A DNA stretch of 64,000 bases from an uncultured Armatimonadia bacterium (GTDB lineage: Bacteria > Armatimonadota > Zipacnadia > CAVVLO01). The translations under genes and the position numbers were made by a program. Where the stretch lies: positions 160,001 to 224,000 of the forward strand of contig CAVVLO010000003.1 of NCBI GenBank assembly GCA_963749155.1. The letters are read 5' to 3'. The notes below the pieces were generated by a model. That model was not told where the DNA came from. It ran no database searches and worked only from the letters and a program-made list of their open reading frames with translations. This document shows positions 1,785 through 10,352 of this stretch, piece by piece. The first letter of the stretch is position 1, and every line of letters starts with the position of its first letter.

Positions 1785-2441
1785 TCACTCACGCCTGAAT
1801 AACGCCGCCACGAAGCCTGCGGTTTCATCGCAGCCTGCGCGCGGCGGCTCGGTCTCCAGTCGCTCTAACTCCGGCCCCTGATAGAGCGTCGAGGCGCAGC
1901 GCTCCAGCCGCAGCCCGGCGTTTGCGGCAAAAGCCGTAAGCTGCTCCAGGCTGAAGAAGGTCGCCTTCGAGTAGTAGTGATGGCCTGCTGCGCCTTTGGC
2001 TGCATACAGCTTGCCCCAGGCGCTGCCCGCAGGGACGAAGCCCAGTATCACCGCGCCTCCCGGCTGGGTGACGCGGGCGGCTTCTTGCAACAAAGCTTCG
2101 GGCTCCTCACAAAAACAGATAGTGACGATAACCAGCACTGCTCCGAAGACCTCATCGCCAAAAGGCAAAGTTTCACCCATCGCCTGGACCACTTTCAGAT
2201 TGCGTTTTACACTGAACTGAAGCGCGCCTCGCGCCGGATCAAGCCCAGCGTCCACTCCTAGTGCTTCACCGAAACGCCCAGTCCCCACGCCGATCTCGAG
2301 CCAGGGCCGCGCAAGGCCGCTGGTGAGCTGGCCCAGGCAGGCAAGCTCCAACTCGAAGAGCACTCGGCCTTCAGGCGTCTCAAACCAGGCGTCATATCGC
2401 GCTGCTTCGTTATCGAAAAGGTCACTGCTCCTTGTACTCAT
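1785..2441 (-). CDS. Class I SAM-dependent methyltransferase
   Basis: Motif I LEIGVGTGRF, GETLPF, LLQEAARVTQPGG; N-terminal YDAWF. Confidence 0.9.
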   Translation of the reverse strand: MSTRSSDLFDNEAARYDAWFETPEGRVLFELELACLGQLTSGLARPWLEIGVGTGRFGEALGVDAGLDPARGALQFSVKRNLKVVQAMGETLPFGDEVFGAVLVIVTICFCEEPEALLQEAARVTQPGGAVILGFVPAGSAWGKLYAAKGAAGHHYYSKATFFSLEQLTAFAANAGLRLERCASTLYQGPELERLETEPPRAGCDETAGFVAALFRRE

Positions 2442-2594
2442 TTCCTTGGCCTGCCAGGTAAGAGGATTCTTGATCGACAGTTTTGAAAATCGGGCTGGGC
2501 GTAAACTAGGTGTTATTTACACAAGCTTTCATGCTATCCTGTCGGCAAACGAAAATATCCTGACGCTTGGTCAACTAAGGTATGAGGCTTGTAG

Positions 2595-3485
2595 ATGAAA
2601 GCATCACTGGAATGTCTGCCCTGTTTTGTGCGTCAGTCGCTCGATGCCATCGCGATGGCTACCGACGATGAGCAGCTTCGCCTGCAATTTTTGCGCGAGG
2701 TGCTTGGCTGGCTCAGTGAATGGGAACTGGAGCTCTCGCCCCCCATCATGGGCCAGCTTGTGCATCGCCGGGTGCGCGAGATTACCGGCCAGGCCGATCC
2801 TTACCGTAAATCAAAACAGGCCCACACTCAACTGGCTCTGGCTCTGCTTCCTGCGCTTCGAGAGCGCGTAGCGGCCTCCGACAACCGGCTCGAGACCGCT
2901 TTGAGACTGGCGGTCGCCGGCAATGCCATTGACCTGGGAGTGAAATCGTCCATCAGCCTTGCCGAAGTGCAGGTCGCGCTCGAAGAAGCCCTCCAGGCCC
3001 CTCTGGGTGGCGATCTGGCTGCTTTTCAACGCGCCACAAGTGAGGCTGCAACCCTCCTCTATCTGGCCGATAACGCTGGAGAACTCGTTTTCGACCGCTT
3101 GCTCATCGAGGAACTTGCCGCGCTGGGCGGGCAGATAACGGTGGCAGTCAGAGGCGCGCCTGTAATCAACGACGCCACTCTGCTCGAGGCGCGCGAAAGC
3201 GGCATTTTCGAGGTAGCCAAAGTTGTTGACAACGGTTCGGATGCCCCAGGCACTCTGCTTGAGGAGACCAGCCCAGCTTTCCAGCGGGCTTTTGCCGAGG
3301 CGGACTTGATTATCGCCAAGGGCCAGGGCAATTTCGAGTCTCTAAGCGAGGTCGAGGCGCCGCTGTTCTTCCTGCTAAAAGCCAAATGTCCCGTAATAGC
3401 CGGCCATCTGGGACAGTCCGTTGGCTCTTATGTGCTGGCGCCCTCGCCCTGGTGGGCCAGAGCCTCGGTAGCGCAGGCGCTCTGA
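2595..3485 (+). CDS. ARMT1/DUF89 family damage-control metal-dependent phosphatase
   Basis: ECLPCF, DPY, AGNAIDLG, LADNAGE, PVINDAT and IAKGQGNFESL motifs. Confidence 0.9.
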   Translation: MKASLECLPCFVRQSLDAIAMATDDEQLRLQFLREVLGWLSEWELELSPPIMGQLVHRRVREITGQADPYRKSKQAHTQLALALLPALRERVAASDNRLETALRLAVAGNAIDLGVKSSISLAEVQVALEEALQAPLGGDLAAFQRATSEAATLLYLADNAGELVFDRLLIEELAALGGQITVAVRGAPVINDATLLEARESGIFEVAKVVDNGSDAPGTLLEETSPAFQRAFAEADLIIAKGQGNFESLSEVEAPLFFLLKAKCPVIAGHLGQSVGSYVLAPSPWWARASVAQAL

Positions 3486-3510: not shown

Positions 3511-4116
3511 CTAGTCCTGCTCAGCCTGCTCGAGCGAGACTGCCCGGTCGAAGAGTTTTAGCAAATGGTCGCGGATATCCTCCGGCCAGTCGGAAATCAG
3601 CTTGGCAAGAGGGCTTCTGCTGCGCGCATAGAGGGCCCGAGAGGCCTCTTCGAAGTCCGGCAGATCGCCCGCCATCGCCCACATAAACTTGCCTGCCGCC
3701 TCGAGCGCCAGTCTGGAGCGCTCTTTGGCGGGCTGAGAGCGCATCGCCTGTTCTACCAGCTTGCGCAGGGCGGCGGACTTCCCGCTTGGCTGGCCTTCGA
3801 GCCATTCCCAGTGCCGCGGAAGCAAGGACACTTCGCGACTGGTCACTCCCAGCCTGGGACGACCAGGGCCGAAGCGCTCAGGATTTGCGTCTTGCTGGAC
3901 AAAACGCGCATCATCGGCCAGGCGCGCAAGTACTTCCTCTGGGGCGCCGCGGAAATCAAAATCCAGCAGCCTGCCTGTCGAATCATCGAAGACCAGCACC
4001 GGCGCCTGCTCGCCCTCATCAATCGCAAGCTTGGCTGCGAGTACCGTCTCGCCCAGGCTTCCCGAGCCAACGAGCTGGGTGCCGGCAAAGGCCACATAGG
4101 TCTGCTCTGCGCTCAT
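3511..4116 (-). CDS. DUF2239 family protein (putative ribbon-helix-helix regulator)
   Basis: Family signature GRPRLGVTSREVSLLPRHWEWL..QPSG.SAALRKLVE and AMAGDLPDFEEASRALY; RBS GGGAG. Confidence 0.88.
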   Translation of the reverse strand: MSAEQTYVAFAGTQLVGSGSLGETVLAAKLAIDEGEQAPVLVFDDSTGRLLDFDFRGAPEEVLARLADDARFVQQDANPERFGPGRPRLGVTSREVSLLPRHWEWLEGQPSGKSAALRKLVEQAMRSQPAKERSRLALEAAGKFMWAMAGDLPDFEEASRALYARSRSPLAKLISDWPEDIRDHLLKLFDRAVSLEQAEQD

Positions 4117-4129
4117 TAGTTTCTCCCGA

Positions 4130-4201
4130 CCACTTTGATTGGGAGCAATATTACCCAGTATAAATACAATTAGTCAATTATTACTGGGTAAAAAAGCGCA
4201 C
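4130..4201. repeat. Direct repeat A, copy 1 (promoter/operator module)
   Basis: CCACTTTGATTGGGAGCAATATTACCCAGTATAAATAC-(11 nt)-TATTACTGGGTAAAAAAGCGCAC; both flanks are identical to 5914-5986. Confidence 0.95.
4147..4191 (-). promoter_or_regulatory. Sigma70-type promoter of the DUF2239 gene, overlapped by two inverted operator-like boxes
   Basis: Minus strand TTGACT-18 nt-TAATAT; boxes TTACCCAGTA (4151-4160) and TTACTGGGTAA (4181-4191). Confidence 0.65.
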
Positions 4202-4212
4202 GGAGAGGGAGA

Positions 4213-4273
4213 GGGGCAACTTGCTCCTGGCTAGGCAAGCCCTCTCGGCTTGTTAGCCAAAGGGCGACGCCCC
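4213..4273. terminator. Long imperfect hairpin downstream of the 4284-4868 gene (terminator or REP-like)
   Basis: GGGGC..TTGCTC.TGGCTAG.CAAGCC-loop-GGCTTG.TAGCCA..GGGCGA.GCCCC. Confidence 0.45.
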
Positions 4274-4283
4274 AGCCACCAGG

Positions 4284-4868
4284 TCAATTCTCCTCGATAT
4301 CGAACAAGAAGGTGCAAGGATGTTTCCCGCCGCTACTCAGCGCAGAGGAGCGCACTGTGCAGGAGAGTCGACAACCCAGTGCGATTTGCAGGTGGTGCTT
4401 TACATGCCCGCCGCAGCAATAACAATAGGTGATGGAGACCGGCTCCTTTGCTTTACTAAGGCAGACGCAGCCGTAGGTTGCTTGCCCCTCGGGGGCAAAG
4501 CGGACGAGGATGCGGCCGTCAGCCTCTCTGGTGACACTGTGGCCGAAGACGAACCGGGTTTCGTTCGCTGCCGCGATGCGTTCCTCAAGTGTTGCGTGCT
4601 CCTTTGCGATTGCCTTACTGAGCTGCAACCTTTTCCCGCCGAGACAACAAGCGCACTTCTCGAGCACAGCGTGTCGGGTCGCGGCATCGAGCTGCGCATC
4701 CATGCGGCCCATTGCCTCCCGCATCCAGGCTGCCTTATGCTCCGGCGACGCGCCCCGTAAAAGCAACTCGCCACCAGCGAGGAGCTGGTCTCTTAGCTCT
4801 TCTGCCACTCCTAATGCTTCCAGGCTGTTCGCCAGTTGGCGAACCCGTCCATGCTCATATTCCGGCAT
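4284..4868 (-). CDS. Cys-rich DUF6144/V4R-like protein
   Basis: CACC, CVC, YCYCCGGHVK and terminal GGKHPCTF motifs; RBS AGGAGG. Confidence 0.7.
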   Translation of the reverse strand: MPEYEHGRVRQLANSLEALGVAEELRDQLLAGGELLLRGASPEHKAAWMREAMGRMDAQLDAATRHAVLEKCACCLGGKRLQLSKAIAKEHATLEERIAAANETRFVFGHSVTREADGRILVRFAPEGQATYGCVCLSKAKEPVSITYCYCCGGHVKHHLQIALGCRLSCTVRSSALSSGGKHPCTFLFDIEEN

Positions 4869-4883
4869 ACAAATCGCCCTCCT

Positions 4884-4936
4884 GCCGGCAAGTATAGGCT
4901 TGATAAGGCCACTTATCGATGTTCTTTCCTCACCCT
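4884..4936 (-). repeat. Direct repeat B, copy 1 (duplicated promoter)
   Basis: 46 of 53 nt identical to 5851-5903; on the minus strand contains TCGATA-17 nt-TATACT. Confidence 0.9.
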
Positions 4937-4990
4937 CTACTCCTGACTACTTCACCTGGAAGCACTACTAATCCTTCTGAAAAAGTTGAC

Positions 4991-5010
4991 AATATTTACT
5001 GGGTAATATT
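4991..5010. promoter_or_regulatory. Isolated operator-like palindrome
   Basis: AATATTTACTGGGTAATATT, with the same core as the boxes in repeat A. Confidence 0.65.
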
Positions 5011-5036
5011 AGCTGCGGCGTCAGCTAAAAAAAAGC

Positions 5037-5783
5037 CTACTGAGCTGCTTTCTCTGCCACGACCATCAGTTCGAACTCATCCAGTTTGATGGCGCGCTTG
5101 CCCCACTCACCCGCGGTGCCACCCCACAGGTGCAGGACGGAAAAGCCCGCGAGCTGGAAGAGCAGCTTGAGTTCGGTGGGCGTGAAGGAGCGCTCTCGCA
5201 ATAGGAGCGGGGGCTCTCCTTCACCAAGTGGGAATTCGGTGACAGTGCTCATCGTCAGTGGATCGAATAGCCCCTGCTCGACGTCTTCGTCCGAGCGCTC
5301 CCGGATCATCTTGAAGGCACTGAGCGCGTTGAAGACCGCCTTGCCGCCCGGCTTCAGGCAGCCGTGGAGGTTGCGCAGGATGGCGAGTGGTTGCTCGATG
5401 GGGTCGTCGGTCGCGCCCAGCAAGCCGAAGGAGCCCTCGCACAGGCATATAGCGGCGTCGAATTGCTTGTCCAGCGCGAAACTGGTCGCGTCGGCCTGAA
5501 TCCACTGGACTTCGACCCCTGCGTCCTCGGCTTTGGCGCGCGCCTGGGAGAGCATCCCGGAGGAGATGTCCAGGCCCGTAACCGCTAAGCCACGCTTCGC
5601 GAGCTCGACGGAGTGGCGACCTGTGCCACAACCGACGTCCAGAAGAGAAGCACCAGGGGCAAGCTGGAGCAGGTGAAGCAGAAACTCCACCTCGTTTGCC
5701 GTGTTTTGGGTGAAGCAGAGCGCGTCGTATTCGGGCGCTTCGATGTCGTGGAACTGCTGCCAGGCGTTGTTGCTAGTTTCCAT
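5037..5783 (-). CDS. Class I SAM-dependent methyltransferase
   Basis: LLDVGCGTGRHS, TGLDIS, QADA, FDAAICL, LKPGG. Confidence 0.92.
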   Translation of the reverse strand: METSNNAWQQFHDIEAPEYDALCFTQNTANEVEFLLHLLQLAPGASLLDVGCGTGRHSVELAKRGLAVTGLDISSGMLSQARAKAEDAGVEVQWIQADATSFALDKQFDAAICLCEGSFGLLGATDDPIEQPLAILRNLHGCLKPGGKAVFNALSAFKMIRERSDEDVEQGLFDPLTMSTVTEFPLGEGEPPLLLRERSFTPTELKLLFQLAGFSVLHLWGGTAGEWGKRAIKLDEFELMVVAEKAAQ

Positions 5784-5850
5784 AGGGAGTCCTCTTCTCG
5801 TCCAGAGCTAACCTCACAAGCACGGGCAATCTATATCAGAGACGGCCGCG

Positions 5851-5903
5851 GCCGGCAAGTATAGGCTTGGTAAATCCCTTTATCGATCTTCTTTCCTCAT
5901 CCT
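5851..5903 (-). repeat. Direct repeat B, copy 2
   Basis: GCCGGCAAGTATAGGCTTG...TTATCGAT.TTCTTTCCTCA.CCT, matches 4884-4936. Confidence 0.9.
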
Positions 5904-5913
5904 GGACTCTCTG

Positions 5914-5986
5914 CCACTTTGATTGGGAGCAATATTACCCAGTATAAATACCAATAAGACTATTATTACTGGGTAAAAAAGCGCAC
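5914..5986. repeat. Direct repeat A, copy 2; overlaps the last codons of the upstream gene
   Basis: Matches 4130-4201 except in the central 11-12 nt; encodes VRFFTQ-stop of the 5966-9144 gene. Confidence 0.95.
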
Positions 5987-8900
5987 AGACAGCTCTCCCT
6001 CATGCCAGTACCAGCAGGGGGTGCGCGATTCAAGCGCTGCCTCAAGCCCGTTTGCCAGGATCGCCTGCCTGCCCTGCACCTCAACAGCTACTGGCTTCTG
6101 GGGCCAGCGCCCGCTGAAGACATAATCGCCTGCTGGCAGGTCTACCACCAGTTCGACCGCGCCTGGCTTGTTTTCTCTCAGCCTTGCCGGCCCCTGCCCC
6201 TGGGGCATATGGAAGACGCTTTGAGCGGGTACCTGGCCATTATATTCCGGATACGCGAAATTGGCCGTCTTCGGGTCGTAAAGCTCATGGGCAGCACAAT
6301 AAGCATAGGTCGAGTCCACGAGCCTGAGGGCGCGCTGCTGTAACTGGGTATCTCCCTTCACGACAGCCCACTCGAAAAGGCGACGACCGAGGGCCACCCA
6401 GTTGAACTCGAGCCCCCAGGGCTGCTCTTTTTCGCCAACCAGCAGCAACCCATCGCGCTCGAAGAGTCTGGAAGCAATCCAGCCCTCGATACAGGCATCC
6501 GCCGCCTGCTTGTACTGCTCCTCGCCCGTGTCGAGATAGTATTCTCTGAGAGCCGAGAGCGAGGCCAGGGTGGTGTGCAGGCCATACCAGCTATCTACGC
6601 CCCACCCGCCCTCGGTATTGGCGTCCAGCCAGACGGCACAGAAGCCGCCCTCTTGTTCGGGGCGTTGATTTTGCTGGACAAGAAACTCCATCGCGCGCTT
6701 GCCGAAGGCCAGATACTCCTCTTTGCCTGTGAAGCGGTAAAGCCTGAGCAACTGGAAGGCCAGTTCCGCGACGTTTTCGGCCCTTACCGGGTAGTCACGG
6801 TAGATAAAGGCTCCCTCTGGCCCAAGTGGATTATGGGCAAGCCGCGAGAAGGGCGCCTCCAGGCTGAAAGGACTGACCTGGCAGACATACCGCGCCGAAT
6901 GTTCAGCCCGCGCCAGGGCGCTGACATCGCCCGTGGCCTCAAAAAGCACAAGCTCGTTGCGCAGGCCGGTCAGCCCGGCCGAACAGAAATCCGACGCCAG
7001 ACCGTAAAGTTCGGCCCGCCGCCAGTAGTCGCCGCAAGGCGTCAGCAGTTCCTCGGCCTGGAAATTGCCGACGTTGCTCATAAACTCAAGCAGTCGCTCA
7101 TCACCTGTCAGCCGATACCAGTCCTGCATTATGTCGAGGGTCGGACTTTCAAAAATCCAGTGATGATCGAACTCCAGCAGCGCATCGCCCAGGCCGTGGA
7201 AGCCCCTGCCAAGCCGCGCCAGGTTACGCGCCCAACTGTAGCTCGAGTCCTGACTCGACCAGACGCGCCAGGCCTCAGAAGCCCTTACGAGCAGCAGGTC
7301 AGACCGCTCCTCGGGCTGGCGTTTGCCCTCTGAACCCGGCAGCCAGGGCCATTGGCCCTCGATGTTTACTGTTGCGGGCCAGGATTCAACCTGAAGCTCA
7401 GGCCTTCTGGCCAGGGCGCGTTGCCAGCGGCTTGCCAACCGGCCTGAGTGGAACAGGCCCTTCGACCACCTGGATTTGCGCCGGCGTCGGAAGCACGAGG
7501 AAAGCCCAGTTGGCGAGCTCCTCAGCGCTAGTAAGGGTAAGCAAACCGGAGCGATACACCTCGGGCAGATGACTGATTGCGAAGCGCTGGGCGGCCGCAA
7601 GCTGGGTAGCCAGGCCGGCTTCGCCCTTGCCGGCGGGCACCAGGATGAAGGCGAATCCGGTTGGCGAGCTGACCTTGGCGGCTTTGAATCTGAAAGCCAG
7701 TTTGCGCCCCTCGGCCGTTAGCTCGGAGATATTGCCTGTTAGGGGCATCGCCAGGAGTTCAGTGTCATCCCAAAGCAGGCGCTCGGGCAGGCCGGCGCCA
7801 GTCGCTTCAAAGGGCTGGTTGAAGTTGAACTGGTAGGAGAACTCGACATCCCTCAGCGCGCCAGCCTGCGGGCGCAGGATAAAGGCATACAGCAGGGCGT
7901 TCTGGCCAATCGGGAAGACATAATTGACGCACAGCCACTCGGGCTGCTCTCGCTCCTCGGTAAAGACGCGGATCCACTGGTAGAGGGACTCCTCAGCGTT
8001 CATATGAGTGCCGCGCACCGAATAGCACAGGCGTAGGTCGCCGTTGCGCGCAAGCTTTGCCGTGCGGTTATTCCAGTCAAGCTGGCCAGAACTGTTTTTG
8101 AGGATATCTACCGCCTTGCCTTGCTCCGGCTTGACGAGCAACGTGCTCTCGCCAAAGGAGCCCAAATCTCCAAGCAGCACCTTGTGGAGTGGCGCCCCTC
8201 CGATTACTCCGCGCCAAAAACTGAATTGATCGCGCTGGAGGGTCGTCTCCACCTCGGGCACAGGCCAGGGGGTATCCCACGGCGCCCCGGCAAGCAGACT
8301 GACGACGTTTGCGGCCGTGTCGGCAGGCTCGACGCAAGGGCCAAGATAGCCAAGCTGACCAGCGCCTACCTTCACCAGCGCGGCATCAACGAGGCGCTCG
8401 CCCTCTTCGGGGTGATATTCGAGCAGGGAGAGATACTCGTTATTCCAGTCCTTCAGCAGTTGCAGCCTGATGCCTCGCTCTGCGCTGACAGGATGGAGCC
8501 CAAGCCGCTTCCCAAGCCTGGACTCCCAGTTGGAAGTGTGAGGCGCCAGGCCCGAGGTATGAGGCTCGATATTGCAGTTTGCGACGGTTATCCACTCATC
8601 CCAGATACGCTGCAGGTCCAGATCAGTTATCTCGCTAGCCAGCGGGCCGGGCTGCGAGATACGTAGTGGCAGCCCTTGGCCAACCCAGATAAAGCGCGCC
8701 CCCTTAATCAGCAGCTCCTCCAGCGGGATGGAGCGGCGCGTTGGGCCTTGCCACCAGGAGGTCGGGGGAAGACAGTCCACCCCCATATAGGGCAGCGTGT
8801 AGAGTCGCGAATGGTCGTAGATTTCCCCATCGCCGTCAGGGTCCACGAGGACATCGGGGGCCGCATTGCCTTCATGCGCGACAATAATCAGCGTATAAGC

Positions 8901-9144: not shown

Positions 9145-10352
9145 CAGAAGTCCCCTTTCCGTTTGGATATGACTGTTGTGAGGTCGCGCTTCCACTCGCC
9201 ATCCAGCCTGCGAAGGCCGGTCTGGTCGGTGGCGGTGTCCTGATAGGCCCACATCCACCAGCCCGCGAAGCCGTACTCATCGCCTTTGGCGAAGTGCCAG
9301 CGCAGCACTTCGGCCTCCGAAAGCGCGCTCTTGTCGAGGATAGTCCCTTCCAGGCTATGGCCTGCGCCTTTGAAATCCGTAGAGATAATCGGCGCGGAAT
9401 TGCCTTCCGCAAGGATCCGGACGATTTCGCTGAGATAATAGACGCCATCGGGCGCAGGGTCACAGCAGGGATAGGTGCTCATCACCCAGTAATCAGGGGG
9501 CAGGCGCAGGTCGGCCACGAGCCACCGGTGCACGTTGGAGAAACTGCTTAGCCGCGCCAAAGGCGGCTTGGCGCTCCAATACGGCGTGTCGGCGAAGATT
9601 GGAAGCATTATCGGCGAGCCGACGGGGCGCTTGGCGGCAGCAAGGACGCGCGGCCAGATGTATTTGAGGAAGCGCTCGGTGTACTGGCCAATTTCCGGCT
9701 GCTCGGGGAAGTCCCAGGTGACCGGCTCCGCGCCGCCCCAGTGGTAGTTGCCCATCGGCACCCAGAGGGCAATAGCCTCGGGATGCTTGACCCTTGTCTC
9801 GACGTACTGGACTAGCTGCGTGTACCAGACGGCCGCCTCGCTCCAGGGAGTGTCATCGGGCTCGGGCCACCACTCGGAGGCGCCGATATGCTGGGCGGTA
9901 TCCACGCTGAAAGGGATCCACTGGTTGGTCGCGAGGTCCACCTCGACGCTGACGCCGAGGGTATGGCAGTAGTCGAGGAAGTCCACCAGATTATCCAGCG
10001 TGCGCAGATTGGCCCATTCGGCGGCGTCCTTCGCCTCATCGCTCGGGGAAAGGCCCGGCTCCCTCAGCGTGTAGGGGATAAGCACCATCACGTCGAGGAA
10101 GTTGATGCCTGTCTCGCGCACCAGGTCGGCGAGTTCGGCGTTGACACGGTCGCGGATCAGGTGATAATCCACCAGCCAGTGGCCGCTGCCGGGTGGGACA
10201 GGCGAGGTTGGATTAAAATGCACGCCGGCCAGCTCGCGAGGCTCAGGGGCGGGCGGTATGGGAAGCTCCCCCGTCCCCACTTTCAGGCCCAGCAAGCCAA
10301 GGGCCAGCGCGAGCAGCAGCAACACAGGACCGGGCGCTGTCGCAGGTGTCAT
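9144..10352 (-). CDS. Secreted glycoside-hydrolase-like (probable TIM barrel) protein
   Basis: Second half of the 872-aa ORF. Own ATG (ATGA overlap at 10349-10352) with a signal peptide; GVHFNP near the start, GWWMWAY..GL...DG.WK at the end, as in clan GH-A-like proteins. Confidence 0.6.
   Translation of the reverse strand: MTPATAPGPVLLLLALALGLLGLKVGTGELPIPPAPEPRELAGVHFNPTSPVPPGSGHWLVDYHLIRDRVNAELADLVRETGINFLDVMVLIPYTLREPGLSPSDEAKDAAEWANLRTLDNLVDFLDYCHTLGVSVEVDLATNQWIPFSVDTAQHIGASEWWPEPDDTPWSEAAVWYTQLVQYVETRVKHPEAIALWVPMGNYHWGGAEPVTWDFPEQPEIGQYTERFLKYIWPRVLAAAKRPVGSPIMLPIFADTPYWSAKPPLARLSSFSNVHRWLVADLRLPPDYWVMSTYPCCDPAPDGVYYLSEIVRILAEGNSAPIISTDFKGAGHSLEGTILDKSALSEAEVLRWHFAKGDEYGFAGWWMWAYQDTATDQTGLRRLDGEWKRDLTTVISKRKGDF

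Follow-up and report, generated by a model that had tools for sequence, protein, structure and literature searches.

The window, by which we mean the whole stretch of 64,000 nt analysed here, carries, in order of position, genes for a DUF2239 protein, a DUF6144-like Cys-rich protein and a class I SAM-dependent methyltransferase, all on the minus strand (Table 1). For the methyltransferase, no specific NCBIfam family scored above its cut-off among the matches listed. Five exact copies of TTACCCAGTA were present in the window, and the exact scan found no further one, the nearest being two 1-mismatch matches at 9482 and 30447. This confirmed the sequence-only reading, an earlier model-generated note, which had reported five copies of one pseudo-palindrome and none elsewhere in the window. 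The same reading held that the boxes flank the -35 and overlap the -10 upstream of DUF2239, and the promoter-like site at 4177-4148, placed between and over both boxes, agrees with this. A scan of the whole genome (4.17 Mb), which had been proposed as a check, counted the exact 10-mer 12 times, where a Markov model predicts 3.2-4.7 occurrences.

Table 1. Features of the DUF2239 locus (positions in the window)
Feature	Position	Strand	Basis
DUF2239 gene, 201 aa	3511..4116	-	Pfam PF09998, E 1e-68
DUF2239 residues 80-134, predicted ribbon-helix-helix DNA-binding core	3715..3879	-	VIA-align RHH matches and conservation
79-bp promoter repeat, copy C	4130..4207	.	92% identical to 5914-5992
Sigma-70-type promoter-like site of DUF2239, TTGACT-18-TAATAT	4148..4177	-	Same layout in orthologues
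Operator box 2, overlapping -10	4151..4160	+	Exact copy and family register
Operator box 1, abutting -35	4182..4191	-	Exact copy and family register
DUF6144-like Cys-rich protein, 194 aa, candidate target (recruited locally)	4284..4868	-	PF19641, E 1.5e-7; orthologues without box
59-bp repeat with box-free promoter-like site TCGATA-17-TATACT at 4919-4891	4884..4942	-	85% identical to 5851-5909
Sole retained box of diverged promoter copy B	4997..5006	-	Exact copy
Class I SAM-dependent methyltransferase, 248 aa, candidate target (recruited locally)	5037..5783	-	Pfam
59-bp repeat with box-free promoter-like site TCGATA-17-TATACT at 5886-5858	5851..5909	-	85% identical to 4884-4942
79-bp promoter repeat, copy A, boxes 5935-5944 (+) and 5967-5976 (-)	5914..5992	.	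92% identical to copy C

The 79-bp and 59-bp repeats are paralogous. Therefore the five boxes descend from one two-box promoter and are not independent of each other, a point absent from the sequence-only reading. Local duplication would have put promoter copies before the methyltransferase and DUF6144 genes. In copy A, the -35 has decayed from TTGACT to TAGTCT.

Two further observations concern this locus. A joint from 4202 to 5988 (run X2) and one low-depth contig (run X1) suggest a form of the locus that lacks the 1,785-bp DUF6144-methyltransferase block; repeat collapse is the competing, artefactual explanation, since the block is present as well in runs of the same study. From RNA libraries, short contigs span 4161-4603, which is no demonstration of transcription.

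Predicted fold of the DUF2239 protein

The AF2 model (pLDDT 80.6) comprised an N-terminal α/β domain (residues 7-73), a flexible linker, a GRP arm with a predicted ribbon-helix-helix (RHH) segment (85-127), and a C-terminal helical bundle (129-200). Residues 80-134 were modelled as an RHH, and their best structural matches among 48,161 chains (VIA-align) were nearly all RHH proteins, as judged for the top 50, in part by entry title. The best match was CopASO (Z 5.0, rmsd 2.0, 44 aligned), a small Z-score for a small domain. The closest by rmsd was PutA52 (Z 4.7, rmsd 1.6 Å, 40 aligned), and AmrZ, TacA, omega, CdbA, NikR, ParD and Arc were also among the top matches. The model showed the strand-helix A-turn-helix B topology, with helices at 100-107 and 113-127; the ribbon strand itself was coil in the monomer models. 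These matches support the earlier recognition of an RHH (Arc/MetJ/CopG) pattern in the protein, at the level of a predicted structure.

The conservation pattern pointed in the same direction. Among 379 homologues, G85-R86-P87, E95, W103, W105, S114 and R118 were 99-100% conserved. The alternating polar and hydrophobic strand typical of RHH proteins was present (E95 100%, V/I96, S/T97, L98 100%), as was the G-x-S/T opening of helix B (G112 96%, S114 100%). RHH families are short and divergent in sequence. Profile comparison of DUF2239 with BrnA by hhalign gave no significant RHH link (probability 0.4, E 0.17), and this relationship was regarded as unsupported. PDB searches with phmmer and hmmsearch, using the whole protein and its three parts, returned nothing meaningful; neither the full model nor the RHH fragment had a Foldseek match in the PDB at E<=0.001; and the ESM Atlas search recovered DUF2239 clusters only. 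Pfam scans of the parts found DUF2239 alone, plus a weak AT_hook match in 3/70. The flanking domains matched no specific fold: the C-terminal part was a generic helical bundle (best Z 7.7), and the N-terminal part was barely searched.

The operator and its neighbours across phyla

The family comprises at least 7,237 proteins; clustering at 50% identity gave 1,711 clusters. Its genes are patchy, present in 1/61, 14/251 and 16/121 genomes of three genome sets, and horizontal acquisition is likely in the genome studied here. Across the family, the putative operator takes the form of an 18-bp palindrome, ATTTTACCCGGGTAAWAT, with an even core of 10 bp, TACCCGGGTA. Allowing at most 2 mismatches to this core, boxes occurred upstream of 123 of the 129 distinct DUF2239 loci, with two or more boxes in 84, versus 150 (any box) and 1 (two or more) of 3058 control tiles. 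A related palindrome upstream of orthologues, expected if the sequence-only reading was correct, thus exists across phyla. That reading's operator, TTAC-CCA-GTA(A), is real in the window, while the family form is TACCCGGGTA and the version first described is a lineage variant.

The promoter geometry was equally regular. A PWM scan found at least two boxes in 111/128 promoters, the PWM having been trained on those same promoters, and 102 of the 111 pairs were spaced 26-29 bp apart. TGAC directly followed box 1 at 78-88% per position. Usually one box abuts the -35 and the other overlaps the -10, in a register fixed in more than 100 promoters, and the window boxes fit it (29 bp apart, TGAC after box 1). 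An operator over its own -35/-10 is expected of an autoregulated repressor, and the palindrome pair at this position in DUF2239's own promoter points to autorepression. From Deinococcus to Myxococcota, Pseudomonadota and Zixibacteria, conservation of the palindrome was seen only in company with DUF2239. In 33 DUF2239-positive genomes, 35 of 55 pattern matches sat at the DUF2239 promoter (our count from coordinates). The other 20, distal single matches, were no excess over the 48 in 33 DUF2239-negative genomes, and flank and genome scans revealed no large distal regulon.

The window box TTAC-CCA-GTAA equals the family operator minus one base, in the same register. Scored with the family PWM, the window boxes obtained just 12.4-15.5 of 31.9 bits. 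This 9-bp form is specific to the genome: WWW-TACCCAGTA-WWW occurred 8 times, against a mean of 0.09 (maximum 4) for 300 core permutations and 2 copies in 60 class relatives. An 89%-identical relative that differs at 15 of 138 nt has kept it unaltered. Lys113, where helix B starts, is unique to the window protein, and the lost central operator base (TACCC-A-GTA) was probably matched by this change, an association seen in one lineage. It would be a rare natural case in which the spacing of an operator and a conserved residue close to the DNA changed together.

Several neighbours recurred in other genomes. Directly downstream of DUF2239 we found MATE genes in 7/132 sampled loci, and also in Ralstonia and Phyllobacterium, and MFS genes in 3/132. 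A small GIY-YIG-like gene adjoined DUF2239 in 12/132, and in several phyla it was adjacent or, by position, box-controlled. In Phyllobacterium and Novosphingobium, which were not seeds, it was divergent from DUF2239 with boxes between; six non-seed matches had no box. Its product is homologous to the I-TevI catalytic domain (1ln0, E 6.6e-9) and gave no match in Pfam and NCBIfam scans. In the alignment, of the Tyr/Tyr/Arg/Glu catalytic set the first Tyr was variable (Y/F/G), the second was replaced by W/L/F/R, and the Arg was mostly retained. Long 'fusions' of DUF2239 with methyltransferase, GNAT, SnoaL, APH or amidase were each seen once and could be artefacts of read-through. Identification of the DUF2239-linked Ralstonia MATE as dinF was rejected, the two appearing to be different genes. 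The linked MATE is full-length in R24, and the 350-395 kb region of GMI1000 (unannotated), where RSp0283 presumably lies, held only a 29%-identical MATE, with neither DUF2239 nor a box. dinF is RSp0283, marked 'f' in R. syzygii (PMC3169583).

In the literature searched, we found no paper on DUF2239 and no description of its function. Among the matches listed, searches for TACCCGGGTA or PF09998 returned unrelated papers only; those for DUF6144 and the operator sequences, and for GIY-YIG paired with LuxR/ArsR, returned nothing. Other identifiers presumably linked to these families are COG3644, UCP019302 and cd10451. The present analysis gives DUF2239 a predicted fold, a putative operator, a promoter geometry and recurrent candidate targets. 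The gene is present in Caulobacter vibrioides and Deinococcus radiodurans, model organisms in which the prediction can be tested directly.

Proposed regulation and alternative readings

DUF2239 is very probably a dimeric RHH repressor of its own gene and of any co-transcribed or divergent gene, acting via the two palindromes at -35 and -10. One dimer would occupy each 18-bp box. Its two-stranded ribbon would lie over the CCGG dyad, where the invariant Glu95 would be well placed for reading cytosines, and its GRP arms, also invariant, would enter the minor groove of the AT-rich flanks in an AT-hook-like manner. Occupation of both boxes would shut the promoter, together with the co-transcribed or divergent genes. 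The N-terminal α/β domain or the C-terminal helical bundle may sense an inducer, probably a toxic small molecule because of the pump neighbours. It likely also switches off the efflux-pump or nuclease-like genes that adjoin it in some bacteria.

Control of the DUF6144 and methyltransferase genes in the window is a separate matter. DUF2239 may regulate both, at a confidence just short of even. It is likewise conceivable, with nearly balanced chances, that autorepression is true and the three boxes before these genes are passengers of promoter duplication, the genes being driven from their own box-free promoter; this alternative bears on the local regulon only. The two sets of paralogous repeats and the decayed -35 of copy A favour the passenger explanation. 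Each gene also has its own second, box-free promoter-like site nearer the start codon, TCGATA-17-TATACT; in both copies it lies downstream of the boxes, at 49-78 bp. No box was found upstream of the orthologues of the two genes in class relatives (0/7) or of the genome's own methyltransferase paralogue, and the 646,311 flanking positions of orthologous DUF2239 loci held no extra boxes besides one locus's own promoter and one weak match. Against it, copy B has kept box 1 exactly although the surrounding sequence, box 2 included, has diverged, and in one strain (run X5) copy A still has a spacer of the DUF2239 type, with just 2 differences. The earlier proposal that DUF2239 controls a modification/detoxification module is thus unsupported in general, given the unboxed orthologues, the DUF2239 flanks without extra boxes and the box-free promoter-like sites. 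On this comparative evidence the proposed regulon is local only and no general feature of DUF2239. The window may be a snapshot of a regulon that grows by promoter duplication.

That DUF2239 is instead an RHH antitoxin within a type II toxin-antitoxin system, the GIY-YIG-like protein being the toxin, is improbable. Many of the RHH structural matches are antitoxins, and the partner's recurrence beside boxes or DUF2239 and its I-TevI homology would suit this reading. However, a cognate toxin next to most loci, as an antitoxin would need, was not seen: adjacency was confined to the 12/132 loci, often divergent instead of in one operon, the gene was not found in this genome, and the second Tyr of its motif is replaced. 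In ORFs downstream of 102 DUF2239 loci, no toxin families were detected at E<=1e-5 except one longer GIY-YIG protein and one GNAT. An hhalign comparison of the N-domain, run with a 6-sequence alignment, also lent no support to a HicB relationship (probability 0.5, E 0.13).

There is a slim chance that another, unlinked global regulator reads the palindrome, with DUF2239 merely one target. The pairing of palindrome and DUF2239 comes from comparative evidence, and the genome has three more AT-flanked 9-bp copies outside promoter regions, which would fit such a regulator. However, the motif is kept across distant phyla only alongside a patchy gene, distal sites show no excess, and the protein downstream of the boxes itself has a predicted DNA-binding fold. 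Least plausible, to the point of near dismissal, are boxes with no protein partner, maintained as hairpin-forming inverted repeats or reshaped to avoid a CCGG/CCCGGG restriction site: both window boxes form 10-11-bp inverted arms open to homogenising by template switching, but the -35/-10 register is fixed in over 100 promoters, CCGG is not depleted here (observed/expected 1.07; CCCGGG 0.85), which also led us to reject restriction-site avoidance as the origin of the odd box, and Rfam gave no credible family, so that an RNA element in the leaders was rejected.

Beyond repression of its own promoter by DUF2239, a broader picture is possible but doubtful. The family would be a new pan-bacterial class of one-component RHH sensors, whose AT-hook-like GRP arms and central ribbon read an 18-bp operator and whose targets are efflux pumps, enzymes that modify small molecules and a degenerate GIY-YIG protein. 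This genome would present a natural switch of specificity: Lys113 alone would have retuned its protein to a 17-bp odd-centred operator, now spreading to new genes by promoter duplication.

Comparison with known systems

Like CopG/Arc/omega/ParD and CopASO (PDB 6iya, 1irq, 1arq, 7b22), DUF2239 has a predicted strand-helix-turn-helix over 40-47 residues, a G-x-S opening helix B, and palindromic operators over its own promoter. Those proteins are small single domains or an RHH with an antitoxin tail, whereas the DUF2239 RHH lies in the middle of a 200-aa protein of three domains; identity over the matches is 2-17%, with no linking sequence profile. NikR and PutA are ligand-responsive and autoregulated. 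As in these two proteins (PDB 1q5v, 2rbf), the DUF2239 RHH is joined to further domains; theirs lies at the N-terminus, fused to ACT or enzyme domains, whereas no specific fold was matched by the domains around the RHH in DUF2239. Some BrnA (PF14384) members share a GRP motif just ahead of an RHH-like segment, but the profile comparison described above was not significant and most DUF2239 loci have no toxin gene. FepR is reportedly the repressor of the MATE pump FepA, and the 7/132 loci in which DUF2239 lies directly upstream of a MATE gene resemble such local pump repressors. MATE and MFS pump repressors are usually helix-turn-helix proteins of the TetR or MarR type. In contrast, the predicted fold of DUF2239 is an RHH, and an RHH-type repressor of such pumps would be unusual.

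Predicted fold of DUF2239

We regard the boxes and DUF2239 as a real feature, and the assignment of DUF2239 as a repressor acting on this operator is strong and very probably correct. The operator sequence and the regulon proposed by the sequence-only reading need correction. An AlphaFold2 model of the window protein, built from a 120-sequence alignment (pLDDT 80.6), opened with an alpha/beta domain at the N-terminus, followed by a linker of low confidence (73-93) and by helices 100-107 and 113-127. The C-terminal domain was helical and resembled generic helical bundles in structure comparison. When modelled residues 80-134 were compared with 48,161 chains, the top 50 were almost only ribbon-helix-helix (RHH) proteins, the fold that had been claimed. 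CopASO matched best (Z 5.0, rmsd 2.0, 44 aligned), and PutA52 (Z 4.7, rmsd 1.6, 40 aligned), AmrZ (4.5), TacA (4.5), omega (4.3), CdbA (4.2), NikR (4.0), ParD2 (4.0) and Arc (3.8) also matched. Such low Z-scores are expected for 45 residues; the predicted assignment rests on the uniformity of the match list, not on score size. No link emerged from Foldseek, from Pfam, from profiles of the PDB or from an hhalign comparison with BrnA. By the testable RHH features, DUF2239 reads as a probable RHH protein.

The family operator and its variant in the window

DUF2239 loci were drawn from GTDB genomes, metagenomes and plasmids. The 140 loci matched by tblastn yielded 132 distinct near-full-length proteins, 129 with at least 150 nt upstream (own locus included). 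Named hosts include Myxococcota, Zixibacteria, Hydrogenedentes, Planctomycetota, Acidobacteriota, Deinococcus and alpha-, beta- and gammaproteobacteria. The gene is patchy, occurring in 14/251 genomes of Pseudomonadota (the phylum of locus L019) and 16/121 of Myxococcota (that of L001), centre genomes counted in, and in 1/61 of the window's class, namely only the window's own. Promoters were scanned from -180 to +20 for TACCCGGGTA with up to two mismatches, and 200-nt tiles from the same loci served as controls. At least one match was present at 123/129 loci, against 150/3058 tiles, and at least two at 84 of the 129, against 1/3058. A related palindrome lies upstream of orthologues across phyla. 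A PWM counted on the same 128 non-own promoters on which it was trained, so that the count is not independent, gave at least two boxes in 111 promoters, a single box in 15 and no box in 2; 102 of the 111 had a spacing of 26-29 bp. In the family register, box 1 is followed by TGAC, which belongs to the -35, and box 2 overlaps the -10. The earlier proposal of a palindrome over promoters stood, but its sequence did not: the family consensus is ATTTTACCCGGGTAAWAT, and the window form is a variant. At an Acinetobacter baumannii DUF2239 promoter (L244:3952-3988), two boxes with a TACCCTGATA core lay merely 19 bp apart, another lineage-specific variant.

The window DUF2239 boxes, 29 bp apart with TGAC after box 1, kept the family register. 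In each, one outer half was perfect and the other shifted by one base, and they scored 12.4-15.5 of a possible 31.9 bits with the family PWM. The window box is a variant of the family operator in the same register. This odd form occurred upstream of only 2/128 orthologues. The promoter of L069 (Myxococcota) carried a third, upstream box in the odd 9-bp form beside normal boxes. The form persists in related strains: a contig (89% identical) had 15 differences in 138 nt, with none in the boxes; by rough estimate, the chance of the 20 core bases staying unchanged was about 1 in 10. Residue 113 opens helix B within the G-x-S motif; it is Lys in the window protein and A, I, V or M in 379 homologues. 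K was seen nowhere else among 453 motif matches, of which two are the window protein itself. In solved RHH-DNA complexes, the start of helix B touches the phosphate backbone. We hypothesize that the odd box and Lys113 may have co-evolved, which a single lineage cannot show.

Boxes in the window and its genome

The five copies of TTACCCAGTA reported upstream of three same-strand genes were confirmed as a real feature; the genes encode DUF2239, DUF6144 and a class I methyltransferase (Pfam).

Features in the window (positions in the window)
Feature	Position	Strand	Remark
Exact TTACCCAGTA copies, n=5	4151(+), 4182(-), 4997(-), 5935(+), 5967(-)		upstream of three minus-strand genes
DUF6144-methyltransferase block, 1,785 bp	4203-5987		flanked by 79-bp direct repeat
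Second methyltransferase	1785-2441	-	divergent from ARMT1-like gene; the pair lies just downstream of DUF2239
ARMT1-like damage-control phosphatase	2595-3485	+	

The scan of the whole genome found 12 exact 10-mers, above the 3.2-4.7 expected, and 8 AT-flanked boxes, against 0.09 for permuted cores; 60 class relatives had 2. The DUF2239 and methyltransferase upstream regions have 79 bp in common (92% identity), and those of the methyltransferase and DUF6144 another 59 bp (85%). The five window boxes are non-independent copies. No box lay between the second methyltransferase and the ARMT1-like gene (1785-3485). Elsewhere in the genome (G000), three further AT-flanked 9-bp boxes (C5:475335-475377, C2:1240226, C3:582294) were above chance, none at promoters. 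Two sat between convergent genes beside terminator-like hairpins, and one fell inside an ORF, in its 5' part; the C5 site had a second copy 33 bp off, where an MFS-like gene has its 3' end.

Boxes do precede DUF6144 and the methyltransferase in the window, but the module proposed earlier was not borne out as a general one. In class relatives, a box was absent from five orthologues of DUF6144 (56-65% identity) and from two of the methyltransferase; none of these relatives has DUF2239. A box was also absent from the methyltransferase paralogue (71% identical) in the window's own genome; this copy (C4:141793-142275), whose similarity stops after about 161 aa, looks frameshifted or truncated. At each of the two window genes, a second promoter-like site, TCGATA-17-TATACT, follows 49-78 bp downstream of the boxes, and in the methyltransferase copy the -35 has decayed. 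That these boxes are pure passengers of promoter duplication has somewhat less than an even chance; against it, the DUF6144 copy retained an exact box 1 although its remainder diverged. Local control of the two genes by DUF2239 is tentative, with prospects a little short of even. Contigs from other samples hint that the 1,785-bp block may be absent in some strains, a pattern that repeat collapse might also produce.

Extent of the regulon, partners and known systems

The flanks of orthologous loci, 646,311 positions beyond the DUF2239 promoter, contained three sites of at least 14 bits, two of them one locus's own promoter further upstream. Pattern matches numbered 55 in 33 DUF2239-positive genomes, 35 by our own count at the DUF2239 promoter, and 48 in 33 negative genomes. 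The few flanking sites and similar genome-wide counts argue against a large regulon. Of 20 distal matches, 15 were inspected and four had promoter layout: two upstream of an LCM-type methyltransferase with a small GIY-YIG-like gene after it, two directly upstream of such a gene. Single strong boxes also lay near rpsL-rpsG, at a similar position, in two DUF2239-positive genomes (L201:1581, L202:1511).

The GIY-YIG-like product shows homology to the catalytic domain of I-TevI, and its gene adjoins DUF2239 in 12/132 loci, five of them Deinococcus. It occurred in 6/251 Pseudomonadota genomes, all DUF2239-positive and all sources of the search seeds. Nine of 13 matches in DUF2239-positive genomes were boxed, all nine seeds or near-copies of seeds; the remaining four, and two in DUF2239-negative genomes, lacked a box. 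Three non-seed plasmid matches were retrieved: two were divergent from DUF2239 with boxes between (Phyllobacterium, Novosphingobium), and the third, truncated, had none. The gene was not found in the window's genome. Stand-alone GIY-YIG-like proteins of about 110 aa with a degenerate catalytic motif (L186:1128-1460, L191:1581-1910, L199:533-856) form a family without a Pfam or NCBIfam model. Directly downstream of DUF2239, a MATE pump was found in 7/132 loci and an MFS pump in 3/132, where 113 loci had at least 600 nt downstream and the models were built largely from the same loci. MATE pumps follow DUF2239 on the Phyllobacterium plasmid and in Ralstonia; judging in part by PMC3169583, the Ralstonia pump appears not to be dinF. 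Five single long proteins (P0156, P0175, P0200, P0210, P0269) join DUF2239 to a SnoaL, APH, amidase, GNAT or methyltransferase domain, either as true fusions or as read-through artefacts.

No publication dealing in this sense with DUF2239, DUF6144 or the operator strings turned up in the literature searched, which did not extend to subscription journals or regulon databases. DUF2239 is proposed to work like the CopG/Arc-type autorepressors and, like NikR and PutA, would be a multidomain RHH protein. Its own features are the central position of the predicted RHH between two unassigned domains and an invariant GRP arm.
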